From Thermoanaerobaculia bacterium (GTDB lineage: Bacteria; Acidobacteriota; Thermoanaerobaculia; Gp7-AA8), in contig DASVEE010000057.1 in NCBI GenBank assembly GCA_036380735.1, positions 11,646 through 75,645 on the forward strand: a stretch of 64,000 bases of DNA. Direction: 5' to 3'. Made by a program: the position numbers and the translations under genes. This document shows, one piece after another, positions 14,247-38,629 of the stretch. Positions within the stretch are counted from its first letter, which is position 1; the number at the start of each line of letters is the position of its first letter. Below the pieces are notes generated by a model. That model was not told the DNA's origin and ran no database searches. It saw only the letters and a list, made by a program, of their open reading frames with translations.

Positions 14247-17117
<2,871 letters not shown>

Positions 17118-18763: not shown

Positions 18764-18774
18764 CGGCGCCCCTA

Positions 18775-18820: not shown

Positions 18821-18898
18821 CAGCGCCGCGTATCGGTGGGGCTACCGAGGTAGGTACCATACGTACTGCTGTTTCGGTTGCCCTATTGCCCTGTTGTT

Positions 18899-20401
18899 TT
18901 ACGGCCTTACGCCCGCCGGCCGCAGTTCCCGTGGCCTTGCACATGCCGCCGCATCGCGCGTTAACTCCCATCGGCGTTCCTCCACGCGATGCCACGCTTT
19001 CGACCGCGCCACGTTCCAGGTGCGCCAGCGCGGCGGGGTGGTCGGCTGCGTGCGCAGCAGCAGCTTCGCGGCGCAGGGTGGCAGCGGCGTGCCGCGCTCG
19101 AGCAGCGCCAGGCGGGCGTCGGCGCTGAGGCGGCCGTGGTAGCCGACGTCGAACGGGCGTACGCCGGCGCTCGCGCGAGCGCGGTTCGTGCGCACGATCA
19201 GCGCGTCGGGATTGATCGCGTGCAGCGTCATCAGAGCGACGAAGCCGGTGGCAATCGCTCCGATGGCGAAGCGCTCGCGGCGTCCTGACAGCGCGGTCAC
19301 CGCCAGCCAGACCAGCAGCGCCGCCAGCCACACGATGAACGCGGTCGTGTACACGCGCAGCTCGGTCAGACCGTACTCGTCGCGGTACAACTCCATGCGG
19401 CGGTAAGCCGAGGCGGCGATGACCAGGACCAGCGCCACCATGGCGTAGGTGAGGATGCGGAAGAAACGAAGCGCCTTCGCGTCCTCTTTGTTCACGATCC
19501 ACTCGGCGAAAAGCAGCAGCGGGATCACCAGTGCGACGACGATCGCCAGCTCGAAGAACCCTCGGCGCGCGTACTCCGCGTACGTCAGCGATTCCGTGAC
19601 CCGGATGACGGTCGTGCCTCCGAAGAGATAGCGGAACTGCACGGCCACGAACGCGGCGAACATCACGTTGACCAGCGTCAGCGCCACGTTCAGCTCCGCC
19701 GCGCGAAGCGTCAGCACCCGCGGTTTCTCCCGGCGCGGCATCGGGCCGCTGGCGATGAGGCTGCGGAAGAAGCACGCCGCGATGACGCCGACGACCAGCG
19801 TCACGAAGACGTGAGCGAAGAGGTCGATGATGTCGACGAAGATCAGGTCGCGCAACAGCTCCGCGAACGCCGCATCGGCGGAGCCGAGGAGGACGCCGAA
19901 GATCAGGAGGAGCGGGAAGGCGAGGAGGCCGCCGCGGATCAGCGTCATCAGGCGCGAGCTGCCGTCACCGCTCGCCAGGCGCCGCCACTGCAGGTCGGAG
20001 AAGGGGAGCTGGAACAGCGCGCCGATCGTCTGCCCCGCGGTCGTGACGATCGCCGCGGCGAGCTCCATCAACCCCGCGGCCGTCGCCCGCACCTCGCGCG
20101 CCGGCAGCGCGACGAGCAGGAGCATGAAGTGACCGACCACCACGTCGAGCCAGACGAGCGGCGCCGCGTCGCGCCAGACGATCCCGATCGCCGCGAGCAG
20201 CGCACAGAGGCCGGGCAACAGGAGCCGGACGAGCGGCTGCGGCCGGAAGCGCTGCGTGAGCGTAACGGCCGCGGCGACGAACAGCAGCGTCCAGAGCGCC
20301 ACATTCAGTCCCCACGGGATGTGGCGGAGGAGCACCGAGGCGGCGAGCCCGATCCCCAGCCCGGTGAGGGCCACGTTCACGGCGGCGCGGTGGTCGTACA
20401 T
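18899..20401 (-). CDS. large polytopic membrane protein (DUF4153/DUF4173-like)
   Basis: start at first true ATG 20401 (MYDHRAAVNVALTGLGIGL...); more than 10 predicted TM helices; upstream part of track ORF 18899..20698 is the 21-bp array read in frame. Confidence 0.55.
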   Translation of the reverse strand: MYDHRAAVNVALTGLGIGLAASVLLRHIPWGLNVALWTLLFVAAAVTLTQRFRPQPLVRLLLPGLCALLAAIGIVWRDAAPLVWLDVVVGHFMLLLVALPAREVRATAAGLMELAAAIVTTAGQTIGALFQLPFSDLQWRRLASGDGSSRLMTLIRGGLLAFPLLLIFGVLLGSADAAFAELLRDLIFVDIIDLFAHVFVTLVVGVIAACFFRSLIASGPMPRREKPRVLTLRAAELNVALTLVNVMFAAFVAVQFRYLFGGTTVIRVTESLTYAEYARRGFFELAIVVALVIPLLLFAEWIVNKEDAKALRFFRILTYAMVALVLVIAASAYRRMELYRDEYGLTELRVYTTAFIVWLAALLVWLAVTALSGRRERFAIGAIATGFVALMTLHAINPDALIVRTNRARASAGVRPFDVGYHGRLSADARLALLERGTPLPPCAAKLLLRTQPTTPPRWRTWNVARSKAWHRVEERRWELTRDAAACARPRELRPAGVRP

Positions 20402-20465: not shown

Positions 20466-20945
20466 CTGAGATCGAGGACCTCAACGTTGAAGTCGCGCAT
20501 CTCAACGTTGAAGTCGCGGACCCCAACGTTGAAGTCCCGGACCTCGACGTTGAGGTGGCGGGACCCCAACGTTGAAGTCGCGGACCCCAACGTTGAAGTC
20601 CCGGACCTCGACGTTGAAGTGGCGGACCCCAACGTTGAAGTCCCGGACCTCGACGTTGGAGTCGCGGACCCCGACGTTGGAGTCCCGGACCTCAACATTG
20701 AAGTCGCGGCACCCCAACGTTGAAGTCGCGGACCTCGACGTCGAAGTCGCGGACCCCAACGTTGAAGTCGCCGACCCCGACGTTGGAGTCGCGGACCCCG
20801 ACGTTGGAGTCCCGGACCTCAACATTGAAGTCGCGGCACCCCGACGTTGAAGTCGCGGACCCCAACGTTGAAGTCGCCGACCCCAACGTTGAAGTCGCGT
20901 ACCTCAACGTTGAAGTCGCGCACCTCAACGTTGAAGTTGCGCATC
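20466..20945. repeat. tandem array 1: about 23 copies of 21-bp unit CCAACGTTGAAGTCGCGGACC
   Basis: near-identical units with T/C and A/G variants, each containing the palindrome CCAACGTTGG core; lies 65 bp upstream of gene 18899..20401. Confidence 0.95.
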
Positions 20946-20948: not shown

Positions 20949-21062
20949 GGGTTGGGGCCGGGGGACGATAGGACAAATAGGACGAATAGGACCGATGGGA
21001 CGAATAGGACGCAGACCGATGCCATAGGTCCCATGGGTCCTATCCGTCCTATCGTCCGCCCG
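20949..21062. repeat. ATAGGAC-unit hairpin element (copy 7)
   Basis: GGGACGATAGGACAAATAGGACGAATAGGACCGATGGGACGAATAGGAC ... GTCCCATGGGTCCTATCCGTCCTATCGTCC. Confidence 0.85.
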
Positions 21063-21135
21063 GCCCGGTCTCCCCCGGCCGGATCCGCCATACCGCCGGT
21101 GACGGCGCCCCACGCCGCCGTAGAATGCGCGCCGC

Positions 21136-22023: not shown

Positions 22024-22094
22024 CGACAAGGCCGACGAGCCCCGGCAGCCAGGCTGCAGCACCGGCTGATTTACGTGTCGCGCCGCTGTTTTTC

Positions 22095-22560
22095 AGGTGT
22101 CACACGGTCGGTCTTGGGTAACGCTTGCTCTGTTCCGGGTGTCGCAAAGCCGGCTCTGAGTGTCGCAAAGTCGGTTTCGAGTGTCGCAAAGTCGGTTTCG
22201 AGTGTCGCGAAGTCGGTTTTGAGTGTCGCGAAGTCGGTTTCGAGTATCGCGAAGTCGGTTTCGAGTGTCGCATTCTCGTCCTGAGGACACTGAAAGTCGG
22301 TTTCGAGCGTCGCATTCTCGTCCTGAGGACACTGAAAGTCGGTTTCGAGTGTTGCATTCTCGTCCTGAGGACACTGAAGGTCGGTTTCGAGTCTCGCAGT
22401 CTCATCCTCGGGGGCTCGCGTGAATGCTGCGGAGCTTCGACTTGCAGCCCGGGAGTTTCGAGTCGACGTCGTGGAGCTTCGCCCCACGGTCCCGGCGTTT
22501 CGCGTGCGGAGCTCCGCCTGGCAACCGCGGAGTTTCGGGCGGCAGCCGTGAACCTCCCTT
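22095..22560. repeat. tandem array 2: 21-bp units TGTCGCAAAGTCGGTTTCGAG (x6) then 42-bp higher-order units (x3) then degenerate 21-bp units
   Basis: periodicity visible through 22560 (GCGGAGCTTCGACTTGCAGCC / CGGGAGTTTCGAGTCGACGTC ...). Confidence 0.9.
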
Positions 22561-22779
22561 CGGATGGTCTGGACGTCCGACGGAAACCTCGCGGAGTGTC
22601 GATCCGTTCTCACGGAGTCATGCTCGATTACCGAGGACTCCCGTCTTGCACGGGCACGCAGACGAGTTTGGCGCGGAGGGACGCGGGCGCAAAACGAAGG
22701 AAGGAGCCGCCCCAGTGTCCGCTGATGTCCGACGTTGACGGCACTGCGGAACCGTGGGTGCTTGCTGCTGAGTATTCGT

Positions 22780-23352
22780 TCACTGCTGGTGCGGGCTCCG
22801 GCCTGTCATTGCGGTCAACCGCTCTCGCAGCTTTTGTCGGAGATCGGTGATCCCGCGGTACTCAGGCACGTTGTGTACTGAGAGGTCAAAGTGAAGTGCT
22901 GTGCCCTCGTGGCGGTAGAGAATCGGCCGCTTGCCGAGTGCGTGCGCGTAGCCGATTTCGTAGTAAACATTGGGGCGAGCACCTGACAAGTCCGCGAAGA
23001 GGAACTCGGCACGCGCGATATGCTCCAACACGACCTCCGTAATCTTCCCCTGATGCTCGATGTCGTCTGCACGCGCCGCAGCAATGCCGAATTCAGCGAA
23101 CGTCTCTTTGACAATCACGTGCACATCCGCCAATTGTGGCTGCGACGGATCCATCCACATGATGATGAAAGCTGTGTTGGGTGTGTGCGTCGACTGCCGA
23201 ACTTTGGTCGCAGATGCAGGGTTGTCCGCGTGGGCGGTGCGAACGATGCGGAGCGCGTCACTCATCGCGTTGCGTGCTTCTACTTTGGCTGTGTCGATCG
23301 ATGCCTCGCGCGCTTCATCGAAGCTCGGTTGTGGAGAAAGCGCAGTAAGCAA
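22780..23352 (-). CDS. nucleoside 2-deoxyribosyltransferase-like / Rcl(DNPH1)-fold protein
   Basis: C-terminal motif FADLSGARPNVYYEIGYAHALGKRPILY matches the D..GT..E.G.A.A.GKPV catalytic-Glu signature of NDT/Rcl family; track start is TTG, internal ATGs at 23265 and 23160 are alternative starts. Confidence 0.55.
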   Translation of the reverse strand: MLTALSPQPSFDEAREASIDTAKVEARNAMSDALRIVRTAHADNPASATKVRQSTHTPNTAFIIMWMDPSQPQLADVHVIVKETFAEFGIAAARADDIEHQGKITEVVLEHIARAEFLFADLSGARPNVYYEIGYAHALGKRPILYRHEGTALHFDLSVHNVPEYRGITDLRQKLRERLTAMTGRSPHQQ

Positions 23353-23834
23353 AAATCCTGACGCCTTCGAGTTCGCTGCAGGTCGATACTCAACGAAAAA
23401 CTTGCAACCAGCTATCGCTGCGCTAACTTTGCTTAGCAGGCGCGCAATATCGTCGCGACTGTGAGGGGTGTATGGCAGGACGGTTGTGGCGACAAGGCTA
23501 AACCACCGATGAGCACGATCGCGCAGACCGGCGATGATGGCGACGATTCAGGCGGCAATCGGTCGCCGCGGTGGTCATAGGCATCGTCCGAAGGCCAGCT
23601 CTCCAGATGGGCCGCAATATCGTTCTGCAGTTCAATACCAACATCGTAGACCGCGCGAAAGGGTTGTTCCACGTGCACCGGAAGGCTGAGTCCGTGGGGA
23701 TCGTCATCCAGCATCTCTGGAGTATAGCTCGCCCAGAACGGGTCACGAAGGCGGCCGCAAACCCGTAGCAACGAGTGACGACGGCAATGGAAGGGCGGCA
23801 CCGCCGCCCTTCCATGATCAAGACGTCGTGCTAC

Positions 23835-24650
23835 CTACTTGCAGGACTGACCCGACACGCCGGCCATCGTGCAGAAATAGTCGCCGACGAAGCAGTGTGC
23901 GTCGCACTGCAGGACGCGGCAGCAGCCGATACAACGGCTGTTCCAGCACTTCACGTGAGCGTCCTGCTCGGCCTGATAACAGAGCATCGACCGGATGAGC
24001 GTTGCGGGGTCCGCGCCTTGTAAGCCGTAGGCGGTTCCGCGCACCCACAGCCCGCCGCAGCTTCCGCCTGGCGCCTCCCAGGAGTCCGTTTCGAATCCTT
24101 CGAAGGTCTCTCCGCCGGGACCATCGGGAAAGGTGCCGCTCTCATCCACCTTCGCACGGCGGGATAGCCGGCCGTGCAGAGGTACACCATTCTTCGCGAG
24201 GTCGCCCAGTGCTTCCACCGCCAGCGCGATTTCCTTTTCGCGGCGCGCGAATGCCACCTCCGCGCCGGGAGTGGCCGTGGTCGACCGGTCAGCACCGGCG
24301 GTCAATGTGAACCGGCCGCCATCTTTTTCCACGAGCGTCAGCGAAGGCGTCTTCGCATCCCACTCGAGCTGGAACTCGGCTGCTGACGACGCATAGGTGA
24401 TGACGCGCGCGAAGGAGCGCGTTGCCTGTGTGCTGACGCGGGCGGTGACGTTCGCCGATTCGTCCAGCAACTCTACTTCTGTGCTGTTCTCCTGAACGTC
24501 GATGCGATAGCCGGTGACGCCGAGCTCGGCCACCTTCAGCGAAGCCATCCGCGTGTCATCGACGGTCCAATCGTTCGCCGCGAACGCGCCGGGGACAGCA
24601 AGAGCGGCTACAAGAAGTGCGACACTCAGACCCAGTAGTTTCTTCTTCAT
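23835..24650 (-). CDS. secreted hypothetical protein with C-terminal Cys-rich module
   Basis: GGAGA RBS then ATG 24650 (MKKKLLGLSVALLVAALAVPGAFA signal peptide); C-terminus CYQAEQDAHVKCWNSRCIGCCRVLQCDAHCFVGDYFCTMAGVSGQSCK has 10 Cys. Confidence 0.55.
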   Translation of the reverse strand: MKKKLLGLSVALLVAALAVPGAFAANDWTVDDTRMASLKVAELGVTGYRIDVQENSTEVELLDESANVTARVSTQATRSFARVITYASSAAEFQLEWDAKTPSLTLVEKDGGRFTLTAGADRSTTATPGAEVAFARREKEIALAVEALGDLAKNGVPLHGRLSRRAKVDESGTFPDGPGGETFEGFETDSWEAPGGSCGGLWVRGTAYGLQGADPATLIRSMLCYQAEQDAHVKCWNSRCIGCCRVLQCDAHCFVGDYFCTMAGVSGQSCK

Positions 24651-24951
24651 CGAAATCTCCATCGTTGGGCGCGGATCTCCACCGGGCCGGGGGGCCCGTG
24701 CCGCGCCACACGTCAATTGGCATTCCTCTGCCGGGACGTTCTCAGATGGCCATCGGTTTACTTCAGGCAGGAATGATGGGCGGCACGTTAGCGGACGGTG
24801 TGTCGCGCGTCCACTATCAATTTGTAAGCGAACGAAAGACGTGACTCCGCGCGTGTTCGTTCGTGCGAGAATCGGGCGCATCGATGGCGGTACGTAAAGG
24901 TGGCGGTAGGGAGTTGCCGCGCAACGTCACTCCTTCGGAGAGAGCATCGAC

Positions 24952-25824
24952 ATGCCACGAGAGAAGAAAAGCGGGAGGGTCGCGCCGCTGGAAATCGTGA
25001 TGCGCACGTTCCGCCTGCGGCCGTCCAGCGTGGTGGCGGAAGCTGCGCGTTTTGCACGGCTCCTGCGAGTGCGGAAGCTCAGCCGCAACCACCTCCTGCG
25101 CATTCGGAACGGTGCGCGGACTTCGCAGGAGAAGATGATTCTCCTCGTTGCGACGCTGCGCGCCATGACCGGGTGGCCGATCCGCGTTACCGACTTGTTT
25201 GACGTGGAGCCGTTGTTGACCTTCGCGGGCGCCACCGCCGTTTGTGGCGACACTCTTGCGGTTTCAGTATTCTCGCCACAGCCGCAGCGGCTGGCTTCTG
25301 CCATGGACGAGATCGACGACCATTCCTCGGCAACACAAGTTCTGGATCGCTTGTACCGGGAGAACTGCGCGCTCCTCCTGAGCACGGCGATCTGCCGCTA
25401 TCACGTTCCTCCGAAGGATGCCGACGGATTGGTTCATGACGTATTCGCCTCCTACCTGGAGCGGCAACCGAAGGTCGGCGATTCCCGCGCGTACCTGCTC
25501 GGCGCGATCAGGAACGCCTCCCGCCATTACTGGCGGAAGCGTGCGCATGAGAGCCCGTTCCTGCCGGCGCACGCCGAGACGTCGGATGACGCCACGGCCG
25601 CAGGCCTCGACCGCTGGGCCCTGAACGTGAGTCTTTCAGTAGCGCTTTCCAAGCTGGGTGATAAGTGCCGTCAAACCCTGTTCCGCTATTACTTCGCGGA
25701 GGAGCGCCCCGACTCGATCGCACGCGACATGAACACCACGCCCGGCAATGTTTCTCAGATCCTGCATACGTGCAGACGGCGGATTCGGGAGATCTTCCGC
25801 GCGCTGACGGAGCCCAAACGATGA
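24952..25824 (+). CDS. ECF sigma factor with N-terminal XRE-type HTH extension
   Basis: N-terminal LSRNHLLRIRNGARTSQEKMILLVATLRAMTGWPIRVTDLF (XRE-like HTH); sigma region 2 (LDRLYRENCALLLSTAICRYHVPPKDADGLVHDVFASYL) and region 4 (SIARDMNTTPGNVSQILHTCRRRIRE). Confidence 0.7.
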   Translation: MPREKKSGRVAPLEIVMRTFRLRPSSVVAEAARFARLLRVRKLSRNHLLRIRNGARTSQEKMILLVATLRAMTGWPIRVTDLFDVEPLLTFAGATAVCGDTLAVSVFSPQPQRLASAMDEIDDHSSATQVLDRLYRENCALLLSTAICRYHVPPKDADGLVHDVFASYLERQPKVGDSRAYLLGAIRNASRHYWRKRAHESPFLPAHAETSDDATAAGLDRWALNVSLSVALSKLGDKCRQTLFRYYFAEERPDSIARDMNTTPGNVSQILHTCRRRIREIFRALTEPKR

Positions 25825-27152
25825 CGGAACACTTCTCGGAAGCCGAACTCTGGGACTTGGCGAGTGCATCCCAGGCATCTTCCCAACGCGCACGTCTGCA
25901 CTTCGAAGCGTGTGAATCATGCCGGGCGCTCTACGAGTCGTTCGCCGCGATCGATGCCGGCCTGCGGGAGAGAGACGTCTGGGCGGCGGCGGAACACCTT
26001 CGCGTTGAAGGTGCCGACAGCGCCTTACGACTGCGGCAGTTTGCCGCGCGGCTTGACGCTGAGCGCGAGGATGCGGCGCGCCTGCTGCAGCCGGTCCTGA
26101 TCTCACCGGCCGAATTCGAGCGTCACGACGTGGTACGGCAACCTTCATTTCAGACGGCCGCGTGCGTGGAAATTCTGTGCAACACCGCCGAGCAGATGCG
26201 CGAACGACGGCCCTCGTTCGCATTGGCGTTGGCGACAACCGCTGCCACGATTGCCGGAAAGCTGGAACGGACACCTCGCACGCTCGGGCTACGAGCCCGG
26301 GCGGAGTTGGAGAGAGGCATTGCACTGGGAATGACGGGGAAGTTCGCAGGCGCCGAAGCTGCGCTGGAGCGTTCGGCCGCCGCGCTGGACGAGGCGCCGT
26401 TAGCGACGGACTGGGAGTACGCCTGCGTCGGGCTGGCGCGGGGCGTCATCTATTCGAACAGCGAGCGATACGACGAAGCAATCGGTGAGGCTGCCGCCGC
26501 GGCCGCGGTGTTCCGCGAAGCGGGCGATATGACGCGTTATCTGAAAGCACAAATGGTCGTGGCGAACGTCGACATCTACAGAAACCGATACGCGGACGCG
26601 ACGATCATCGCGCAGGAAATCGTCGCCGCTGCACGCCACTCTGATGACGTGCTGCTGCTCGCGCAGGCTCATCACACCGCGGCACTTTGCTACAGCGGCT
26701 TGAACGAGTGCGATACCGCTCTCGACCATTACGCGGAGGCGGCGACCCGATGGGATGAGCTCGGACTTACCACGGAGTGCGTCCGTGTCGAGTGGGCAGT
26801 TGCAGCGCTGCTCGTCCGACAGGGCCACATGGCCGCGGGAATCGAACAACTAGCATTGTTGCCGGGCCGTTTCGCAGCGCTGGGAATGATCAACGACGCG
26901 GCGCTCGCCAGTCTGGATCTTGCGGAGGCGCTGATTCTCGCCGGGCGAGCCTCCGACGTGCCGTTGATTCTGAGCGGCGTGATCGTGACGTTCTCGAACG
27001 AGGGCTTGATGCGCAGCGCCAACTTGGCTCTCGCGTACCTTCGCGAGGCGGCTGGCAGCAACGACGTGAGCGCGGACAAGATCCGCCACGTGCGCGACTA
27101 TCTGGCGGCGCTCCCGACACACCCGGGCCAGCGGTTCGAGCCGCTCCGCTGA
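25821..27152 (+). CDS. putative anti-sigma factor (zinc-binding N-terminus, TPR-like repeats)
   Basis: ATGA overlap with sigma stop; HFEACESCRAL (HxxxCxxC ZAS-like); long helical repeat region. Confidence 0.5.
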   Translation: MTEHFSEAELWDLASASQASSQRARLHFEACESCRALYESFAAIDAGLRERDVWAAAEHLRVEGADSALRLRQFAARLDAEREDAARLLQPVLISPAEFERHDVVRQPSFQTAACVEILCNTAEQMRERRPSFALALATTAATIAGKLERTPRTLGLRARAELERGIALGMTGKFAGAEAALERSAAALDEAPLATDWEYACVGLARGVIYSNSERYDEAIGEAAAAAAVFREAGDMTRYLKAQMVVANVDIYRNRYADATIIAQEIVAAARHSDDVLLLAQAHHTAALCYSGLNECDTALDHYAEAATRWDELGLTTECVRVEWAVAALLVRQGHMAAGIEQLALLPGRFAALGMINDAALASLDLAEALILAGRASDVPLILSGVIVTFSNEGLMRSANLALAYLREAAGSNDVSADKIRHVRDYLAALPTHPGQRFEPLR

Positions 27153-27180
27153 GCGGGAGTGGGCCGGTGCAACATTTTGA

Positions 27181-27590
27181 GTGCGTGCTTCGCCCGTACG
27201 ATCGCGCCGCATGGGCGCAAGAAGGCGGTCTACTCTTCACGACGACGTCGTGCTTGCCGTGAGAATCGAGGAGTATCTGGGCCTTTGCTTCGAATCGTGC
27301 ACGGCTGCACGTGTAACGGAGCTTGCGGAAACGATAGGCGTCAGCCGACCGCTGTTGACGCGCAGGTGCGCCGAAGTGTTTTGGCGCCACGCCTTTACAA
27401 GTGCTGCGCGAACGTCAGCTCGGATTCGCCGCCGGGTTACTCACATCGCTGCCACGGCTCACGGTATCCGAGATTGCCCGAAGGGCGGCGTTTGGAACGG
27501 AAGCAACGATGTTCCGCGCGTTCGTCGCGAGGTATGGATGCACCCCCGAGGAATACCGCAATAAGCTTACAAAATGATAGTGGACGCACT
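27181..27590 (+). pseudogene. frameshifted AraC-family HTH domain protein
   Basis: first HTH helix pair in frame of ORF 27181 (VTELAETIGVSRPLLTRRCAEV), second in another frame (FGATPLQVLRERQLGFAAGLL...FGTEATMFRAFVARYGCTPEEYRNKL); shift in the T-run near 27380. Confidence 0.45.
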
Positions 27591-27624
27591 CTGACCCCTC
27601 GCGTATCGTCCGCAACATTCCGGT

Positions 27625-28338
27625 ATGCATTTAGACAAATTGCTTTCCATCGCGAGCGATCCACTGGGGCCCGCACTGATCCGAGCTTCCTGTGAGGAAT
27701 CAGTCCCTCGGTCGGTATACGAACTGCTGGCAGCTCGGAATGGTTTTTACCTTCTGGCGAAGGCAGTTCACGTGTTCCCACTGAGCGCACACAACATCCT
27801 CCCGATGGATGCAGAACGATGGAATGCACCAGTGCTGTGGAAGGCTGCTTACGGTGGCTTGTGGCGCGACATGTTCGTGTTCGCGGAGAACGCACTGGGA
27901 TGGCAGTTTGGCATGTCTGCCGAGGGGGTCTACGCCTTCGATCCGGAAACTGCCGCTGTGGAGTGGATGGGGCGGAACCTCGAGGAGTGGGGCGACACGA
28001 TCTCTAAGCGGTTCGAGCACTTCACGCGGTTCGGCGTGGTCCACCGCTGGCAGACTGCATTTGGCCCTATTCCGGACGGTGTGCACCTCGTGCCTCGTCT
28101 GCCGGTGGTTCGCGGTGGTTCGTATGATGTTGCGAACTTCCTTCTGACCGATGCCGTCACGAGTCTGCGTATGCGGGCGCGGCTGGCTATCACCGTCGAT
28201 CAGGCTGCAGATGGAACTTCGCTGGGCATCGTGCGCGGCCGTCTTCGCTCGTTCGGCACCAGTCCGGTGGCGGCACCGACGTGCGACCGGTGCAGATTGC
28301 AAAGGTATGTCAACTCGACGTGGCTGGGACAGCACTGA
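27625..28338 (+). CDS. SMI1/KNR4 (SUKH-1)-like protein, possible orphan immunity protein
   Basis: VPRSVYELLAARNGFYL and FVFAENALGWQFGMSAEGVYAFDPE resemble SUKH-1 motifs; no toxin gene adjacent. Confidence 0.4.
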   Translation: MHLDKLLSIASDPLGPALIRASCEESVPRSVYELLAARNGFYLLAKAVHVFPLSAHNILPMDAERWNAPVLWKAAYGGLWRDMFVFAENALGWQFGMSAEGVYAFDPETAAVEWMGRNLEEWGDTISKRFEHFTRFGVVHRWQTAFGPIPDGVHLVPRLPVVRGGSYDVANFLLTDAVTSLRMRARLAITVDQAADGTSLGIVRGRLRSFGTSPVAAPTCDRCRLQRYVNSTWLGQH

Positions 28339-28478
28339 TGATCCCGCAGCTTTGCTGGATGCATTTGGCAATGAATGCGTACGGCCCTCTCCAATCTCTC
28401 ATCAGCGGCGGCCTTCGAGCGGGAACTCAAAGCGCCAGCGACCCGCCGCGCGCACCCGGCGCCACCAGAAGAATCATC

Positions 28479-28697
28479 ATGCCCAGCCCTGAAGATGAAG
28501 CTCGCGCTGAGCTGGCGGAACTGCTCGCGGGATGGAATGCCCTCCTCGGTCTGATCGAGGAGGGGCATCCAGGGCTTGCTTGGATGAAGGGCGACGTCGA
28601 CGCCGCGGCGCGACTGACACGCTCGCTCATCCACAGCATGGCGGACCCTGCTCTGCAACTGCGGCCGACACGCTTGACTGAGGTTCGTGCTCCTTGA
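28479..28697 (+). CDS. small hypothetical protein (72 aa)
   Basis: ATG 28479 (MPSPEDEARAELAELLAGWNALLGLIEEGHPG...) inside track ORF 28281..28697; no motifs. Confidence 0.25.
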   Translation: MPSPEDEARAELAELLAGWNALLGLIEEGHPGLAWMKGDVDAAARLTRSLIHSMADPALQLRPTRLTEVRAP

Positions 28698-28702
28698 ACC
28701 GT

Positions 28703-28878
28703 CAAGGCCACGGCGGCGTCGGTTTTCCGAGCAGCCAGATGACGAAACGGACCACCGCGGGGCGGCTCATCTGTTCTCGGGTGCGTCCGGCGGCGGGTAA
28801 CGCCGATGCCATCGGGGTGAGCGCGATCGCTGCGAGCAGGGCAGTGGTGGCAGCTAACTTATTCACACGTAAAGACAT
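28703..28878 (-). CDS. small secreted peptide (58 aa) not in ORF track
   Basis: AAGGAG SD 5 nt upstream of ATG 28878; MSLRVNKLAATTALLAAIALTPMASA signal peptide then 32-aa mature part. Confidence 0.35.
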
Positions 28879-29144
28879 GCCTTCTCCTTCGGCGCCGCCG
28901 CTTCAAAGTTATGGCGGCTCCGCTGACACAAGGTGACGCCGGCTGGCGTTCAATTAGAGAAGGATTCCGGCGCCTTGCCGTACCTGGCCAGACGGCGTGG
29001 GATCCCGCCTGGAGCCGGACGGCATTCGTCGTGGTGACGCGGCGCTTCGTACCCGCAAGCCGCTCACTCGTACCGGGATGGAAACTTTGTTACCCTTCCG
29101 CCGTTCAACCTGCGGTCACAACATCGTTCCAGGAGGATCACAGG

Positions 29145-31145
29145 ATGAAATCCATCCGTCTGGCGCTCGCCGTTGCTGCGCTCGCCATCACTACGCCGCT
29201 GCTGGCGGCCGGCCGTTTTGAATCGCTGGTGAACGGGTACAAGAACTTGCAGCCTGGTGATGCCACTCAGGTCAGCGGCGTCACGTTCACGATCGGGCAC
29301 ATGAAGATCACGCTCGAGTCGGGTAAGGCGGCGCCGCTCATGGTTGCCGGCGAACAGGCCGGCATCTTCTTCGTGGGGCAGGGGTCGTTTCAATACGTCT
29401 CAGCCGACAAGGTCGAGATTCCAATCCTGACGTACAACACGAAGAAGGAAGCGAAGCTCGATGCCAGCATCAAAGGCACCGAGGCGGTCCTGAGCGACAA
29501 GTTCACCGAGATCCTGCTCCTCGGCGCCGGAGTCGAGCTGCCGAAGCTCACCGGTGGCGGGGCGGGTTCGATCGCCGAAGAGCTGAAGAAGAACGTCGAG
29601 TACTTCGAGCGCGATCGCGGCGTGCCGCAGGAGCATCAGCTCGCGCTGCAGAAGCTCGCGTATCCGACATCGAAAGTCGTCCGCGCGCAGATCCGCGGCG
29701 GCGGCGACAACCTTCTGTATATCTATGACGGCGCCGAGACGACCGAAGAGTCGCTCGTGACGCTGAAGAACATCGGCATCCAGGACCGGACCGTCGGAAG
29801 CTGGCTGCGCTCCTCCACGCTGTCAGCGTTGCCAATCGATCGCGACCGCAAGACGCCGCCGAAGGCTCCGTACCTGCTGACGGACCTCGACTACACGCTC
29901 GTCGCCGATGGCGAAAACGCCAAGATGATGGCGACGGAGACGATCTACCGTCCGGCGCACGCAACGGCTCTTCGCTTTACGCTCAACGACATCTCCCTGC
30001 CGCGCCTCGGCGTGGCGCCGCGCCGCTACAAGGTCAACAGCGTGAAGGACGCGACCGGCCGCAGCCTGCCGTTCGACTTCACCGACACGAGCCTTTTCGT
30101 CAGCGTCGAAGGGATTCAGGGCGAGACGATCAAGCTCACGTTCGACATCGAAGGCGACTACCTCATCCGTCCGAACGGCGACGCGTTCTGGCAGCTCGGT
30201 GTCGAGCCGTGGTTCCCGCAGCCCGATCTGAACGGCCAGTACTACACGGTTCACTCGGTCGTGAAGGTGAAGAAGCCGTGGATCGCCTTCGCCCCCGGCA
30301 AGACCATCCGCCGCGTCACGGAGGGGGACTACAACGTCGTCGAGAACCGACTCAGCGAGCCGGTGCAGTTCGCGGTGGTGCATGCGGGCAAATACGAGTA
30401 CTCCGAGGAGACGCGGGGCGGCTTGACGGTGCGTGTCGCGGCGTATGCCGGCAAGAACGAGCGCGCGGAAAAGCAGCTCACGAACCTCACGTATCAGCTC
30501 GTCGAGTACTACCAGTTCTTCCTCGGGCCCTTCCCGTTCGAGGAGTTCAACATCATCCAGATCAACGACTGGGGCTACGGTGTTGCGCCTCCGGGCACGA
30601 TGTTCGTCACCAACTCGGTCTTCCAGCCGACGATGGGTGATCTCAACCGCATCTTCTCAACCGGGTCGAACGAGCTGTTCGCGCACGAGATCGCGCACCA
30701 GTACTGGGCGCACTCGCTGAAGATGCCGAGCCTCGAGGAGCAATGGCTGACGGAGTCGTTTGCCGAGTACTCGGCAGCCCTCGCGCTGCGGAAATACCAG
30801 GGAGAAGGCGTCTACAAACGCATGGTGGCCCGATGGAAGCAGAGCGCGAAGGACGCCGGCAACATCGCCCCGATCGCGCTGGCCAACCGCATCGCCGGCG
30901 ATCCGCAGGACGCCTTCATGCGCCGAACGGGTCTGCTGTACAACAAGGGACCGTATGTCCTGTACGCAATGCACAAGGAAATGGGCGATGACCAGTTCCT
31001 CACGCTGCTGAAGTCCTACCAGAAGTCGCGGCGCTTCAAGTTCGGCAACACGGCCGACTTCGCGAATCTGGCGCAGTTCCTCACGAAGAAGGACTACCAG
31101 CCGTTCTTCGACAAGTACTTCTGGGGCACTGAGATGCCGCAGTAA
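29145..31145 (+). CDS. secreted M1-family (aminopeptidase N-like gluzincin) metallopeptidase
   Basis: AGGAGG RBS, ATG 29145, signal peptide MKSIRLALAVAALAITTPLLAA; HEIAHQYW ... WLTESFAEY (HExxH-x18-E gluzincin signature). Confidence 0.8.
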   Translation: MKSIRLALAVAALAITTPLLAAGRFESLVNGYKNLQPGDATQVSGVTFTIGHMKITLESGKAAPLMVAGEQAGIFFVGQGSFQYVSADKVEIPILTYNTKKEAKLDASIKGTEAVLSDKFTEILLLGAGVELPKLTGGGAGSIAEELKKNVEYFERDRGVPQEHQLALQKLAYPTSKVVRAQIRGGGDNLLYIYDGAETTEESLVTLKNIGIQDRTVGSWLRSSTLSALPIDRDRKTPPKAPYLLTDLDYTLVADGENAKMMATETIYRPAHATALRFTLNDISLPRLGVAPRRYKVNSVKDATGRSLPFDFTDTSLFVSVEGIQGETIKLTFDIEGDYLIRPNGDAFWQLGVEPWFPQPDLNGQYYTVHSVVKVKKPWIAFAPGKTIRRVTEGDYNVVENRLSEPVQFAVVHAGKYEYSEETRGGLTVRVAAYAGKNERAEKQLTNLTYQLVEYYQFFLGPFPFEEFNIIQINDWGYGVAPPGTMFVTNSVFQPTMGDLNRIFSTGSNELFAHEIAHQYWAHSLKMPSLEEQWLTESFAEYSAALALRKYQGEGVYKRMVARWKQSAKDAGNIAPIALANRIAGDPQDAFMRRTGLLYNKGPYVLYAMHKEMGDDQFLTLLKSYQKSRRFKFGNTADFANLAQFLTKKDYQPFFDKYFWGTEMPQ

Positions 31146-31153
31146 ATCTCTCG

Positions 31154-31177
31154 GAGCGCCGGCGGAAGCCGGCGCTT
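31154..31177 (+). terminator. stem-loop after M1 peptidase gene (no clear U-tract)
   Basis: GAGCGCCGGC-GGAA-GCCGGCGCTTC. Confidence 0.3.
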
Positions 31178-31235
31178 CGGAGAACCGCTGGCTCCATCTG
31201 GCGGCTGGCCGGCTGCTCCCAACCACCGTCGATTG

Positions 31236-31925
31236 ACCGGTTTAGATCCGCCCACCGCGGTTCGAGCTCCGAAATGGCGGTTCGGGGTCCGGGCCCGGTA
31301 GTCGACGTCCGAAAGACGGCGGTTCAGGGTCCGAGCATGGCGGTTCCAAGTCCGAGTACCGCGGTCTGACGTTCGCGCGCGGCAGTTTGATGTCCGCGCC
31401 CGGCGGTCTGAGGTCCGCGCACCGCGGTCTGAGGTCCGAGCACGGCGGTTTGACGTCCGAGCACCGTGGTTTGAGGTCCGCGTACGGCAGTTTGAGGTCC
31501 GCGCACGGCGGTTTGACGTCCGAGCACGGTGGTTTGACGTCCAAGCGCGGCGGCTTGACGTCCGAGCACGGCGGTTTGAGGTCCGAACACGGTGGTCAGA
31601 GCGCGCCCTTTGGGTAATCAGACCACCGTCATCGGACTCGAAACCGCCGTGATCGGACTCGAAGCCGCCGTCATCGGACTCGAAACCGCCATGATCGGAC
31701 TCGAAACCACCGTCATCGGACTCGAAACCACCGTCATCGGACTCGAAACCACCGTCATCGGACTCGAAACCGCCGTGACCGGACTCGAAGCCGCCGTGAC
31801 CGGACTCGAAACCGCCGTGACCGGACTCGAAACCGCCGTGATCGGACTCGAAGCCGCCGTGCTCACACTTGTAAGCGGCGTGACCACGCTCGAATCGGCC
31901 GCGATCGCGTCGCCTGTGACCGAAG
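31236..31925. repeat. palindromic double tandem array 3: about 17 x 21-bp units (GGTCCGAGCACGGCGGTTTGA) then about 14 inverted units (ACTCGAAACCGCCGTGATCGG), centre near 31610
   Basis: direct reading; left half top strand equals reverse complement of right-half unit consensus. Confidence 0.95.
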
Positions 31926-31989
31926 TCATTTTATTTGCGCATTTCGTTCAGATGACCTACCTTGCTGTCACGTCCCCCGTCCCGGAGAT

Positions 31990-34332
31990 TTGATGCGCAA
32001 CGTTCGGAACATCTTCTTTGCCTGCAGCCTCGTCTGTGTGGCGGTAGCCGCGTCCGCGGATGCCGTCGGTGATGGCGTCGTCGACGCGGTTCGCCGCGGG
32101 GATCGTGCCGCGGCCGTCGCGGCTTCGCGTGCGGCGGACGATCCGGCGCCCATCGTCGAGGGGTTGCTTGCCGTCATCGAGGACAAGCAGGCTTCGACCG
32201 AGATCCGCCGCGATGCCGCTCAGGTGTTGAGCCAGATCCCCGTCGACGCCAGCGTGCGTCTGCTCCCGACGTTCGAAACGGCTTCCGACGACCTGCGCCT
32301 CGAGTTGATCGACGCGATGGGCGCCCATCGGGCGCTGCTCGCGCTCGCGAGCGACAGCAAGGCACGTTGCTCCCTTCGCACCGCCGCCGTCACGCGCTAC
32401 TGGAGCGCCGGCGGGAACCGCGCGCCGGTGCACGCGCTCTTCTCCAGCGAAACCACGCCGCCCTGCGTCGTCGTGGCCATCGCGCCGCTCCTGCAGCAGG
32501 ATCTCGATCGTGCCGACCTTCCGACGGTCGCCGCCACAGCGTCGCGCCTGGTGCTGGAGGGGCAGTCGCGCAACGAGCTGCTCGACCTGCTCGCGTCGAC
32601 CGCCGCGCGCCTCCCGCAAAAGGACGCGACGCGACTCGATCACGCGATGCTCGACGTGGTCGCCCGTCCGGCGGCGACGCACCGCCGCATTGCCGCGCTC
32701 CTCTACTTGCAGAAACGCGGCGTCAACGCGCCGCCCGATCCGGGGATGCTCCTGCGCATCGCCACGGATGACACCGCGCCCGAAGCGCTCCGCGACGCCG
32801 CTCTTGGCGCCGTCGGTTCGCTCGGCCGCCTCGACGCGCAGGCGACCGGCCGTTTGACGAACTTCGCCTCACGTCCGCAGCTCACGCCGCGGCTGCGCCG
32901 CGCGGCATTCGAGGCGCTCGCCGCCGTCGGTGCCGCTCCCGATCGTCCTGTGGCCACAGCCGCCGCCCCGGCGCTCGCCTCGGCGATGACCACCGCGCCG
33001 GCGAGCGCCGACGGCCTGGCGTTCACGCTGCCGCGCATCTCGCCGATGGCGGCCGTCGTGCTCCTCGGCGCGCTCGCGTTGCTCGCCTTCTTCATCGCAC
33101 AACCCATCGTGCTCGATCGCTGGGTGCGCAAGCATCTCAGCGTCGCGCGCGAGCGCTTCGCGGCGAAGGAAACAGTGAAGGTGCGCTCCGCGTACGTGCC
33201 GATGCCGCTCGAGCTCAATGACCGCCGCATCGAAGCCGACGACGTCGACGACGCCATGCGCGCGCTCTTCCGCCGCAGGTGCGTGCTCCTCATCAGCGGC
33301 GAAGGTGGCTCCGGCAAGACGTCGATCGCGGTGAAGCTCGCGAACGACGCGCTCGCCGCGAAGAAGCCGATGCTGCCGGTGCTCATCGAGCACGACTTCG
33401 ACGGCACGCTCCTCGACGAGGTCCGCGAACAACTGCACGACCTCCTCGGCATCAACGTCGCGCCGCAGCTCGCGCGCAAGCTGCTCCGCCAGGGACGCGT
33501 GCTGCTCATCATCGACCACTACTCCGAACTGCAGGAAACGTCGCGCCGGAAGATCGACACGAAGCAGGCGCGCGCCGTCATCATCACCTCGCGCAACGAC
33601 GAGCAGTTCCTCGGGCGCACCGTCATCAATCCGACGCGCATCCGCTGGAGCGATCTGACCAGCTTCATGGAGCACTACCTCCGCCTGCGCGACAAGCTGG
33701 AGCTGTTCAGCGACCGCGAGTTCCACGAGGCCTGCCGCAACTTCGCCGAGATGACGCACGGCCGCGACTCGACGATTCTCCTCGCCCGGCTTTTCGCCGA
33801 TCTGATGATCTCCGCGAAAGAGAAGAAGATGGAAATTCTGCCGCGCAGCGTGCCGGAGCTGATGGTGCGCTACGTCCGTTTCATGAACGTCTCGCGGCAG
33901 CCGGGCGATCCGAACAACGACGAGATCCAGCGCGCTGCCAGGCTCGTGGCATGGGAGTGCGTGAAGCAGGAGCTGGCGCCTGCACGCGCCCGCCTCGACG
34001 ACATCCGCCGCGCGGTCGGCGACGACGCCGACGAACTGCTCGAGTACCTCGAGCGCGACCTGGCGCTCATCGAGATCTGCGAGCCGGCACGCGCCGAAGT
34101 CCGCTTCACGCTGGATCCGCTGGCGGAGTACCTGGCTGCGCTGCACATCACGGAGCTCCACGGCGACGACGTGGCCAAGTGGGAGTCGTGGGTCGAACTG
34201 CTGCCCGACAACGGCCAGCGCATGCGCGGCTTCCTCCGCGCGGTCCTCGACTGCATCGGCACCGGCGACGAGCTGGAGCTCGCGCGAGAGGCGATCCGGA
34301 TCCGCATGACGGTGTTTGCGGCGGCGGCGTAG
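31990..34332 (+). CDS. membrane-anchored NACHT (STAND) NTPase with periplasmic HEAT-repeat domain
   Basis: signal peptide MMRNVRNIFFACSLVCVAVAASADA; HEAT/PBS-lyase-like repeats aa 30-330; TM helix MAAVVLLGALALLAFFIAQPIVL; Walker A GEGGSGKTS, Walker B VLLIIDHYSE, NACHT sensor motif AVIITSR; helical C-terminus. Confidence 0.75.
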   Translation: MMRNVRNIFFACSLVCVAVAASADAVGDGVVDAVRRGDRAAAVAASRAADDPAPIVEGLLAVIEDKQASTEIRRDAAQVLSQIPVDASVRLLPTFETASDDLRLELIDAMGAHRALLALASDSKARCSLRTAAVTRYWSAGGNRAPVHALFSSETTPPCVVVAIAPLLQQDLDRADLPTVAATASRLVLEGQSRNELLDLLASTAARLPQKDATRLDHAMLDVVARPAATHRRIAALLYLQKRGVNAPPDPGMLLRIATDDTAPEALRDAALGAVGSLGRLDAQATGRLTNFASRPQLTPRLRRAAFEALAAVGAAPDRPVATAAAPALASAMTTAPASADGLAFTLPRISPMAAVVLLGALALLAFFIAQPIVLDRWVRKHLSVARERFAAKETVKVRSAYVPMPLELNDRRIEADDVDDAMRALFRRRCVLLISGEGGSGKTSIAVKLANDALAAKKPMLPVLIEHDFDGTLLDEVREQLHDLLGINVAPQLARKLLRQGRVLLIIDHYSELQETSRRKIDTKQARAVIITSRNDEQFLGRTVINPTRIRWSDLTSFMEHYLRLRDKLELFSDREFHEACRNFAEMTHGRDSTILLARLFADLMISAKEKKMEILPRSVPELMVRYVRFMNVSRQPGDPNNDEIQRAARLVAWECVKQELAPARARLDDIRRAVGDDADELLEYLERDLALIEICEPARAEVRFTLDPLAEYLAALHITELHGDDVAKWESWVELLPDNGQRMRGFLRAVLDCIGTGDELELAREAIRIRMTVFAAAA

Positions 34333-34334
34333 CG

Positions 34335-34505
34335 GGTCGATAGGACGAATAGGACCCATGGGACGAATAGGACCTATGGGACAAACAAGCCTGCGCGGTC
34401 TGGCGCATCCGCGTGACGCTGGTGCCGCGGCGTAAGCCAGACAGGATCACGTCGAAGTCGCGCAGCGTCCTATCCGTCCCATGGGTTCTATTCGTCCTAT
34501 CGGTT
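34335..34505. repeat. ATAGGAC-unit hairpin element with about 80-nt loop (copy 8)
   Basis: GATAGGACGAATAGGACCCATGGGACGAATAGGACCTATGGGAC ... GTCCTATCCGTCCCATGGGTTCTATTCGTCCTATCGG. Confidence 0.85.
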
Positions 34506-34595
34506 CTGCCGCGCCCGCCGGGCGGAAGCGTAGCCGGCGCCCCCTCGCACCTTCCTGCCGTTACGGGGCGGCACGCGGTAAAATGGCGGCGCCTC

Positions 34596-37500: not shown

Positions 37501-38441
37501 ATCCGCTGAACAAATACGGCGACGAGCTGGGGCTCTTCGCCAATGCCACGACGGAGACGCTCTACAAGCACGTCGACGAAGTCGTGAACATCGGCGGCAT
37601 CGTTTCGCAGATCAAGAAGTCGAAGATCAAGAAGGGGCCGAACGAGGGGAAGATGATGGCCAAGTTCTTCCTCGACGATCAGTACGGCTCGGTCGAGGTG
37701 GTCTGCTTCTCCGATCTCTACTCCAAGTATCAGCGGTGGCTGGAGAACGGCGTGGCCATTCTGGTGACCGCGAACGTGAAGGACACGGGCGGCGTGCAGG
37801 CGGGCCGCTCGGCCTCGCTGCAGAGTGCCGAACAGAACGCGCACCAGATCGACGACGAGTACGGCGGCCATCCGGAGACGGCGCGCGCGCGGGTCTCGGC
37901 GTACCAGATCTCGTACTACGAGATCGGCGAAGAGGACGATCGCGATCCGAAGGACATCGAGCGCGAGCGTGTGGGGGCGGACGTCGACCAGTACATCGTC
38001 GGCGGGGGACTGTTCGGCGGCGCGGCTCCGTCGGAGGTCGACGAATTCAACGCCCTGGTCAGCGAGTTGACGCCCGAGGTGACGACCAACTTCGCTGCGC
38101 ACGCCGCGGCGTTCCACGAGTCGCCGATCACGCCGGAGCTGTCCGCGCTCGACATCACGCCGCTCGACGGGATTCGCGACAAGAAGGTGAAGGAGATCTC
38201 ACTCGAGGTCGCCTATCCGGCGATGAGCGAGGACACGGTGCGTAAGATCCGCGAGATCGTCGAAGAGAACCTCGGCGAGATCCCGCTGACGGTGACGCTG
38301 ATCGACCTGCCGGCGTCGCTCGCCGCGAGCGCCGGACCGCAGCTCAAACTGCGCGTGAACCATCACTTCAAGGTGCAGCCGGGACCGGGGTTGACCCACG
38401 CCTTCGAGCAGGTGCACGCGAATCCGCGGTACGTGTTCTAA
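34596..38441 (+). CDS. dnaE: DNA polymerase III alpha subunit
   Basis: PHP domain MSFVHLHLHTEYSLLDGA; polymerase core and OB-fold regions collinear with DnaE; ATG 34596 within track ORF 34413..38441. Confidence 0.95.
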   Translation: MSFVHLHLHTEYSLLDGASRPEELAKRVAKQGMPACAITDHGNMFGAVEFYNAMKKEGVKPIIGCEMYVAYGSRFDKAGVEDGQADAGANNHLIVLAQNDTGYKNLVKLVSAGYTEGFYYKPRIDKELLREHREGLIVLSSCLKGEVSQSLAGGNWQKAKDAALTYREILGPENFFLEIQDHGIPDQQKIVPMMAKLADEVGLRMVATNDSHYLDKSDAFAHEVLLCIGTGKTLNDEKRMKFYSDDFYVKGPDEMRRVFADYPEAVDNTVRIAERVNLSLDVKGHHLPKFPVPEGSTLADHFARVARAGLDKRMSAMAHLFAAKRKKHEPKEYYDRLEREIEIIKNMQFPGYFLVVWDFIKYARDHGIPVGPGRGSAAGSLVAYSLGITDVDPLEYDLLFERFLNPERISMPDIDLDFCMNRRGEVIEYVRDKYGKENVAQIITFGTMAAKSVVRDVGRVLGHQYGFVDKISKMIPGGPGVTLTDAKKDSPQLAEAIKNDAEVKKIIEIGEKLEGLSRHAGMHAAGVVITPEPVTNYVPLYRTNRDEIVTQFDMRVVEKMGLVKMDFLGLRTLTVIDDAIKSAKSVDGIDIDIDRIPLDDPDVFRLFQEGRTKGVFQFESGGMVDLLRKARPTQFEDLAALNALYRPGALDAGMVDEYVKRKNGTSKAKYLVPVMKDVLEETYGVIVYQEQVMQIAQKVAAYSLGQADLLRKAMGKKDAAVMAAERGKFVDGAVNNGYEKKKANEIFDYIEPFARYGFNKSHSVAYALVAYQTAWLKVHHPRHFMAALMSSEMDRTDAVVKFIGEAKQMGIEVMPPDINESNFLFTVVGQNIRFGLGAVKGVGEGAIESILAARQKLGRFKTLLAFCEEVDLRACNKKVLEALIKSGSFDFLGTSRRALYEQLEATADSAQRAKDEKEKGQNSLFGMLGGGGSIQSSSTPAAIAKMPEWPEDERLRYEKETLGFYITGHPLNKYGDELGLFANATTETLYKHVDEVVNIGGIVSQIKKSKIKKGPNEGKMMAKFFLDDQYGSVEVVCFSDLYSKYQRWLENGVAILVTANVKDTGGVQAGRSASLQSAEQNAHQIDDEYGGHPETARARVSAYQISYYEIGEEDDRDPKDIERERVGADVDQYIVGGGLFGGAAPSEVDEFNALVSELTPEVTTNFAAHAAAFHESPITPELSALDITPLDGIRDKKVKEISLEVAYPAMSEDTVRKIREIVEENLGEIPLTVTLIDLPASLAASAGPQLKLRVNHHFKVQPGPGLTHAFEQVHANPRYVF

Positions 38442-38445
38442 GGCT

Positions 38446-38530
38446 TGGGACGATAAGCGAACAGGACCTTTAGGGCCGATGGGAAGAGAGTTGTCCGTCC
38501 TGTCGGTCCTCTTCACCCCATCGTTGGATG
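38446..38530. repeat. degenerate ATAGGAC-family element (copy 9)
   Basis: GGGACGATAAGCGAACAGGACC ... GTCCGTCCTGTCGGTCC. Confidence 0.5.
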
Positions 38531-38629
38531 GCGGCCCTGCCTTTCGATCAGGTGGGTCAAAGCCAGAATCAAGCTATACTCCGGGCTGACTCACGCAGCA
38601 AATAACCACAATCCAACGAGGGCCCGGCT

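Follow-up and report, generated by a model that had tools for sequence, protein, structure and literature searches.

An intergenic element of ~690 bp, built from ~32 units of 21 bp that run head to tail in two inverted arms, was analysed in a 64-kb stretch of DNA from an uncultured soil bacterium of the Thermoanaerobaculia (64,000 nt of contig DASVEE010000057.1, assembly GCA_036380735.1; hereafter the window). To its left is the gene of an M1-family peptidase (29145..31145, + strand; Pfam PF01433), the likely start of which is M79 of a long open reading frame (ORF) from 28911, and to its right is the gene of a STAND/NACHT-type NTPase with a hydrophobic N-terminus (31993..34332, + strand; Pfam nSTAND3 and NACHT). 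The STAND protein is identical to VF618_21960, an NCBI protein from a metagenome-assembled genome (MAG), and an exact-protein look-up of the M1 peptidase, made with two start choices, found no record. The frame of the STAND gene is open back to 31618, yet there is no start codon in that stretch. Beginning 8 nt past the stop of the peptidase gene is a GC-rich 11-bp stem with a GGAA loop (31153..31178, + strand), terminator-like and with no U tract, which bounds the free intergenic DNA on the left. On the other side, a conserved block upstream of the STAND gene (31929..31995, + strand) starts where the right arm ends. The palindrome occupies exactly the DNA between this terminator-like hairpin and the block, which is the candidate STAND promoter.

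In a fixed 21-nt register the left arm (31246..31602, + strand) has 17 units with the consensus TCCGAGCACGGCGGTTTGAGG, and the right arm (31616..31930, − strand) has 15 units, reading TCCGATCACGGCGGTTTCGAG on the − strand. Both counts include degenerate outer units, which are the outer four on the left (31246-31329) and the outer three or four on the right (31868-31930). Tandem Repeats Finder delimited period-21 arrays at 31329-31596 (12.8 copies, 80% matches) and at 31622-31861 (11.4 copies, 92% matches), with zero indels in both. Autocorrelation reached its maximum at lag 21, with values of 0.70 (left arm) and 0.82 (right arm) as against 0.31 for a coding control. A preliminary description of this DNA had reported the 21-bp periodicity, and this holds on formal autocorrelation; its consensus units, its centre and its placing of the repeats between the M1 peptidase and STAND genes were all correct. 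Mean pairwise identity between units is 77% within the left arm and 84% within the right arm, the latter containing three identical units in succession, and the GC skew is +0.12 in the left arm and −0.16 in the right.

The unit appears to be confined to this locus. When the window was searched with the 19-nt left consensus at ≤3 mismatches, 13 matches were found where 0.04 were expected, and all 13 lie inside the element. No further copies of the 21-mer were detected in the window, in 80 related loci or in viral contigs, and phage and viral searches gave no match. A metagenome scan was performed with a 17-nt degenerate pattern of the unit core, TCCGRKCACGGCGGTTT, which is too short to be specific; it returned at least 120 single chance matches, and no array was present among the matches listed. 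Other identities of the array were considered and set aside. It is not a CRISPR array, as the units are contiguous with no unique spacers between the repeats, and no turn in GC skew occurs at the element, as would be the case at a replication origin or terminus. The motif TTGACG recurs within the units, but no −10 element is found at the proper distance for a sigma-70 or extracytoplasmic function (ECF) promoter, and no promoter-like site was detected. Descent of the 21-mer from a heptamer was also rejected, as lag-7 self-similarity is weak in the left consensus (10/21) and absent in the right.

Read as its reverse complement, the right consensus equals the left one at 17 of 21 positions, and the best of 2000 randomised unit pairs reached 16. 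Aligned with gaps, the two arms are 78% identical over 302 columns, and without gaps the cross-arm identity is 66%; the longest gapless arm-to-arm pairing extends for 159 nt at 71% complementarity. Between GGTGGTCAGA and TCAGACCACC, a loop of 17 nt, GCGCGCCCTTTGGGTAA (31601..31617), forms the centre, and the point of symmetry is near 31609. The identity of mirror units is highest close to the centre, at 0.76, 0.81 and 0.67 compared to 0.58, 0.74 and 0.62 for non-mirror partners. The + strand of the element folds with −395.4 kcal/mol (z = −11.2 against shuffles) and the − strand with −406.5 kcal/mol, and the central 101 nt, folded as DNA, give −39.8 kcal/mol (z = −9.3). The folds contain 199-240 cross-arm pairs with neither strand clearly preferred, and predict that either strand is able to form one imperfect hairpin of ~300 bp.

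Tandem Repeats Finder and the pairing of the arms thus agree on what had been described, 21-bp tandem repeats in a long imperfect palindrome with hairpin potential, although the arms are only 66-78% alike and the architecture, as set out below, is not unique in this genome. The instability that had been expected of so long a palindrome is a lesser concern than it seemed, as the arms have diverged and a 17-nt spacer separates them. An Rfam scan of the element found no family at its gathering score. The match to MIR1437, obtained on both strands with 54 bits against a gathering score of 168, merely reflects the long hairpin and was discarded.

Several frames through the arms are open. In the + strand the left arm reads as SEHGGLT heptads to a TAA stop at 31615-31617, and in the − strand the right arm reads as S[GD][HD]GGFE heptads. 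Two ORFs with start codons are also present, an ATG ORF of 103 amino acids (aa) with SSPVTAV repeats (31929-31618, − strand) and a GTG ORF of 133 aa with GLETAVI repeats (31592-31993, + strand). The element could therefore be imagined as two convergent His/Gly heptad genes (SEHGGLT and SGHGGFE), or as either of the two ORFs; all of the proposed frames are open, three of the five variable sites of the right arm are third positions of the S[GD][HD]GGFE frame, and a gene caller predicted the + strand ORF on an independent contig of the Logan assembly. A coding match to the right arm does exist on a Caballeronia plasmid: in C. insecticola (NC_021289.1, 202428-202545) an unannotated lipoprotein-like ORF has a Ser/Pro/Ala linker with ASSPxxA repeats, encoded by degenerate 18-21-bp repeats that are 72% identical to part of the right arm over 118 bp. 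Its architecture is different, and this linker was judged to be unrelated and a case of convergence.

The properties expected of genes were not found in these frames. Past its upstream stop the S[GD][HD]GGFE frame lacks any ATG, GTG or TTG, and no Shine-Dalgarno sequence precedes the ATG ORF. Whereas the GC contents of the three codon positions (GC1/GC2/GC3) are ~0.65/0.45/0.85 in the genes of the window, GC3 is 0.43-0.71 in every frame of the units. Substitutions sorted by register phase number 12/18/8 (left arm) and 7/5/12 (right arm); neither split is significant, and the two arms are discordant. The His/Gly frame (S[GD][HD]GGFE) had 0 homologs among 5.8 billion proteins. The + strand GTG ORF had three weak matches, to generic coiled-coil heptad proteins, and the ATG ORF had 411, of which the five inspected are heterogeneous low-complexity heptad proteins of unrelated architecture; an exact-protein look-up of the 103-aa product found no record. 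The Pfam matches of the three array ORFs were all low-complexity and under the cut-off, and the GTG ORF, which the closest relative lacks, extends across the conserved STAND promoter. The element is most likely non-coding, and we regard a protein product as very improbable. This was also the conclusion of the preliminary description, but it had argued that the two arms cannot both encode the same protein, and this does not hold, because inverted arms could encode similar peptides as convergent genes. Coding is rejected because of the start codon, GC3, substitution-phase and homolog evidence, not because of the inversion of the arms.

Part of the array is also present in an independent assembly. 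Logan contig L201 (SRR25158503) starts inside the right arm at 31831 and its first 162 bp are identical, by which the outer 100 bp of the right arm are confirmed. The Logan assembly breaks in the repeat, as expected with a short k-mer. A chimeric or collapsed join within the repeat was considered for the structure as a whole, as the source is a short-read MAG and, with the second assembly broken inside the right arm, the copy numbers are without independent confirmation. Artefactual palindromes are, however, near-perfect, whereas these arms are imperfect, and the variants among the units render most long k-mers unique. The flanking genes are syntenic neighbours in the closest relative as well, and in many independent assemblies of the lineage, long-read MAGs with megabase contigs (such as locus L014) among them, arrays of this inverted kind are common. 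It is therefore very unlikely that the structure itself is an artefact of assembly, a possibility that the preliminary description had raised.

The closest genome, GCA_036399695.1, was examined at two loci (L001 and L202), a comparison that had been proposed to reveal variation in array length. Its M1 peptidase is 82% and its STAND protein 63% identical to those of the window, and the gene order in L202 is M23 peptidase, M1 peptidase, histidine kinase, STAND, small gene, DnaE. There is no 21-bp array in this genome, neither after the M1 gene nor before the STAND gene, so that the comparison gave no second array length; on these sequences the element is lineage-specific. A different GC-rich hairpin occurs at the same place after the M1 gene in L001. 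A 'proto-array' 3' of the M1 gene, suggested by short matches (e.g. CCGGCGATCTGAGG and TTGAGGTCCG), was rejected as its shuffle p was 0.22 and many L001 windows outscored it.

The promoter block, in contrast to the array, is kept. Three motifs, TTTTATTTGCGC (31929-31940 in the window), GATGACCTA and CGTCCCGGAG, are common to the region upstream of the STAND ortholog in L202. In the window the block contains a candidate −35 element, TTGCGC (31935-31940), and, after a 17-nt spacer, a candidate −10 element, TACCTT (31958-31963), followed by GGAG (31984-31987), 5 nt before the STAND ATG at 31993; from this conservation and these motifs it is probably the STAND promoter. As the closest genome keeps the promoter without the array, the array is not needed for STAND expression.

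Two further differences from L202 coincide with repeats. The histidine kinase gene, which in L202 lies between the M1 and STAND genes, is at the position of the palindrome in this genome. In addition, a segment of ~6.9 kb (22024-28910) in the window opens with a 21/42-bp array (22132-22408) and carries genes for a TIR-like protein (22780-23352, − strand), a TPR protein and, at 24910-25824, an ECF sigma factor. This segment is lacking in L202, where 126 bp separate the M23 and M1 peptidase genes. At both places, therefore, arrays are found at the junctions of rearrangements.

The position of the element directly upstream of a promoter-like block would also suit a contingency (phase-variable) spacer, in which the gain or loss of units by slippage alters the activity of the STAND promoter. 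Heptamer repeats upstream of the Haemophilus hmw genes alter expression by slippage in this manner, and STAND NTPases are often defence genes, the one here having a weak PADLOC match. The right arm, with its 92% homogeneity and its three identical successive units, implies recent turnover of units. Steps of 21 bp would keep the helical phase, though, and change only a distance that is already >300 bp, and the inverted arm is left unexplained. The only other assembly breaks inside the array, and we consider a contingency spacer improbable.

The exact period of 21 bp, about two helical turns, had been taken as a clue to a phased protein-binding array or an iteron- or centromere-like site. In such a site, or in a regulatory operator bank, a protein would coat the units two turns apart, mirrored, just upstream of the STAND promoter. 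Plasmid iterons and type I/II partition centromeres, for example P1 incA/incC, F ori2/incC, R1 parC and F sopC, consist of 17-22-bp direct repeats at a spacing of about two helical turns, sometimes in opposed blocks, and the element is like them in its exact spacing, which no indel disturbs in either arm. A T3 or A3 tract recurs in phase in every unit, ~5 bp lie between the end of the right arm and the candidate −35 and UP-like TTTTATTT block, and strong dyads are found in the units of other 21-bp arrays of the lineage (TTCAACGTTGAA in the array at 20472 of the window, ACGTTCCGGAACGT in L017 and CCTTCTGCAGAAGG in L011). The unit of the element, however, has no dyad, its best self-complementarity being 10/21, which is the chance level, and its variable sites are scattered across the whole 21 bp. 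Known iterons and centromeres comprise 4-12 units next to or on both sides of a rep or par gene and are accompanied by AT-rich and DnaA-box regions, whereas ~32 units are found here, in a chromosome segment that carries dnaE and housekeeping genes, and there is no AT-rich unwinding region at the element. Searches with Pfam, PADLOC and NCBIfam revealed no rep, par or other DNA-binding gene adjacent to it, and the sole rep/par-like match nearby is a sub-threshold P-loop match to CbiA/ParA in Pfam. The lack of a second copy and the absence of the array from the closest genome also speak against this proposal, as do arrays of like architecture in the same genome with units of 7 or 9 bp, which are out of helical phase. 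The binding array therefore found no support and is unlikely. An RNA array of a type III toxin-antitoxin system was rejected too, as the downstream gene is the STAND NTPase and not a ToxN-like endoribonuclease; no ToxN or AbiE-type match was found next to the element in Pfam or PADLOC.

The preliminary description missed that the element stands at the extreme of a class of hairpins with tandem-repeat arms, both genome-wide and lineage-wide. Tandem Repeats Finder and folding revealed that most intergenic gaps of the window contain hairpins with tandem arms of 9-mers or 7-mers, seen at no fewer than 15 sites. The 9-mer hairpins belong to a dispersed family, GGACNNATA (e.g. ATAGGACGA or ATAGGACCT), and are located at 3255-3347, 7050-7136, 11368-11530, 18765-18900, 20950-21070, 34333-34520, 38438-38610, 46105-46265, 51528-51660, 55509-55650 and 61160-61300. 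The relative retains one hairpin of this family downstream of its STAND ortholog (L202, 8290-8400). In the window, the listed dnaE start (GTG at 34413) falls within the hairpin at 34333-34520, so dnaE probably begins later, near 34566. Heptamer-armed hairpins, each with a locus-specific unit, are located at 5775-5822, 17250-17385, 50405-50495 and 62395-62560. The 7- and 9-mer hairpins fold almost perfectly, unlike the 21-mer element.

A survey of 1.33 Mb, comprising 80 Thermoanaerobaculia loci (L001-L080) and the window, showed 50 of 69 heptamer arrays to be in inverted pairs, with gaps of 5-378 bp and mostly similar copy numbers in the two arms. L001-L080 hold 23 further heptamer pairs beyond those of the window; the unit differs between loci, and one unit, CAGAAGG, recurs in L012, L049 and L080. 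As slippage alone gives only direct repeats, this pairing rate of 72% suggests either that the arrays arise by way of hairpins or that self-complementarity is selected for. On a rough gene map, the repeat hairpins are found in convergent, co-directional and divergent gaps.

Arrays of period 21 also occur elsewhere in the window and in relatives. In the window, a 470-bp direct array of 22 units of 21/22 bp, TCGCGGACCCCAACGTTGAAG (20472-20941), lies in a divergent promoter gap beside a 9-mer hairpin, with the palindrome TTCAACGTTGAA in each unit, and its 22-nt units break every reading frame. This array and that at 22132-22408 are intergenic, and a weak period-21 array at 40325 overlaps a candidate ORF and may be coding. 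In the relatives, period-21 arrays are present in L011, L012, L013 and L017, all of them intergenic. The array in L017 (5252-5960) is a direct one of ~34 units and 709 bp, with a partly palindromic unit (ACGTTCCGGAACGT) that drifts gradually along the array. At one orthologous site (L011 19357-19555 and L013 18088-18152), where the flanking proteins are 87% and 76% identical, both genomes have 21-bp arrays, and the units are unrelated. An inverted pair in L013 (5309-5411) can be read as period 7 or period 21, and thus bridges both periods. From the architecture that it shares with the 7- and 9-mer hairpins, the element appears as the largest example of a habit of the lineage, that of intergenic hairpins with tandem-repeat arms.

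Taken together, the evidence favours, with a probability of about 55%, a non-coding fold-back minisatellite: the element would have grown in place between the terminator-like hairpin and the promoter, and it would act, if at all, through structure. The array would have grown by replication slippage or unequal exchange, and the inverted copy would have come from an inverted duplication or from a switch of template on a hairpin. This origin fits the consensuses of the arms, which are about four changes apart, their near-equal lengths (17 and 15 units) and their greater likeness near the centre. As identity within the arms (77% and 84%) exceeds that across them (66%), with the consensuses ~4 changes apart, each arm is likely to have been homogenised separately after the inversion, and growth most likely continued until a functional boundary was reached on either side. 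An antisense RNA, or RNA read through from the peptidase gene, would fold into a very stable duplex, which could in turn block read-through and 3' exonucleases and so insulate the STAND promoter. Any such action would be exerted by structure and not by an encoded product or a sequence-specific partner.

The same anatomy could be that of a mobile or once-mobile fold-back element, a MITE-like (miniature inverted-repeat transposable element-like) insertion with tandem-repeat terminal inverted repeats. Foldback (FB) elements of Drosophila and other eukaryotes have long inverted arms of short tandem repeats that degenerate outward, with a short or variable centre; they are multi-copy and mobile, and have target-site duplications. 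With its long inverted arms of tandem units, more degenerate towards the outer ends, the element has in FB its closest anatomical analogue, and the closest genome does not have it. A cassette between inverted arrays is also known from this window, where VapB and VapC (PIN) toxin-antitoxin genes (13497-14113) are flanked by arrays of the GGACNNATA 9-mer family at 13359-13408 and 14140-14182. These arrays have no fold of their own, and the cassette may lie in the loop of a split hairpin, or the arrays may act as terminal inverted repeats. In contrast to FB, no copies, target-site duplication or transposase were found for the element: neither the rest of the window nor 1.3 Mb of related loci nor viral contigs contain its unit, no transposase is near it, and its flanks have no significant unit-like sequence (a right-arm-type unit in the left flank, at 31216-31230, had p = 0.25). 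A mobile origin is accordingly improbable and, like the binding array and the contingency spacer, unsupported.

Growth in place with a structural role has several points against it as well. Cross-arm identity (66% gapless, 78% gapped) is below within-arm identity (77% and 84%), so that pairing is not strongly maintained and a neutral by-product fits better than a selected structure. The repeat hairpins as a class are not simply terminators, as they occur in divergent promoter gaps and beyond a canonical terminator: a 9-mer array lies just past the terminator at 14231-14200, and another repeat hairpin abuts a TTGACA −35 element at 62401. The element is, moreover, the only true period-21 inverted pair in the 1.33 Mb, so that it is shared architecture by which it is joined in a single class with the 7- and 9-mer hairpins. 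An insulating effect, like transcription through the array, is a proposal made from the sequence. The fold-back minisatellite may equally be a tolerated by-product of a tendency of the lineage towards self-complementary tandem arrays.

The terminator at 14231-14200 (− strand), a 14-bp GC stem with a T run after the gene 14247-17117, is a canonical intrinsic one, and the genome therefore does use ordinary terminators.

A wider proposal, which we hold only tentatively and consider doubtful, is that Thermoanaerobaculia have a lineage-wide, hairpin-dependent process by which self-complementary arrays with units of 7, 9 and 21 nt are generated or maintained in most intergenic regions. These would be an undescribed structural class in prokaryotes, for example supercoil or transcription insulators or products of a dedicated template-switching activity, with the 690-bp palindrome beside the STAND promoter as their most extreme member, still evolving. 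In bacteria, long palindromes would be expected to be unstable and rare, yet this lineage tolerates, and seemingly produces in a systematic way, repeat-armed hairpins of up to 690 bp. The lineage-wide pattern is more interesting than the single locus. If the arrays do arise by way of hairpins, or are selected for self-complementarity, Thermoanaerobaculia would be a natural system in which to study the origin, growth and tolerance of palindromes, and hairpins as insulators. In practical terms, such arrays break short-read assemblies, as in the Logan contig, and yield spurious heptad-repeat ORFs in protein databases.

Among known prokaryotic repeats, the nearest parallel is in Xanthomonas, which has 70-75 convergent pairs of heptamer arrays (GGGAATC) that are intergenic, with conserved gene context, variable length and unknown function (Rehm et al. 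2015, PMC4692102). Like these, the element consists of two closely spaced tandem arrays with a common unit, one on each strand, intergenic and capable of forming a stem-loop or cruciform, and the heptamer pairs of Thermoanaerobaculia look the same in kind. It differs from the Xanthomonas pairs in that its unit is of 21 bp and not 7, its arms are of ~330 bp and not tens of bp, and its unit is locus-specific and single-copy, whereas one motif is dispersed ~180 times in Xanthomonas. It is also not G-quadruplex-prone, and its arms are only ~70% complementary (66-71% gapless, 78% gapped), where the 7- and 9-mer hairpins of the window fold almost perfectly.

Repetitive extragenic palindromes (REPs) are palindromes of 20-40 bp with a conserved GTAG or CGTC head; their copies number in the hundreds, and they have a link to RAYT transposases (PMC3733652). 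Together with BIME and REPIN, they are intergenic, hairpin-forming and non-coding and often follow gene ends, as does the element; the GGACNNATA 9-mer family behaves in this way. The element differs in being single-copy, 690 bp long and made of tandem units with no conserved tetranucleotide head, and no RAYT transposase was matched among the ORFs scanned against Pfam, which were part of those of the 64-kb window.

Short tandemly repeated repetitive (STRR) sequences, heptanucleotide repeats such as TAACTGA in Beggiatoaceae and cyanobacteria, are abundant and intergenic, with slippage as their proposed origin, and in Beggiatoa one inverted case was reported among 170 repeat sets, the rest being direct (PMC4679880). 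They resemble the arrays described here as lineage-specific, abundant intergenic tandem repeats in which heptamers are favoured, but as almost all are direct they form no long palindromes. In the literature searched there was no description of such arrays in Acidobacteria, nor of a 21-bp palindromic minisatellite in prokaryotes. The kind of structure is thus itself known, but unexplained, and what is new is the 21-bp unit, the arms of ~330 bp and the occurrence in Acidobacteriota.

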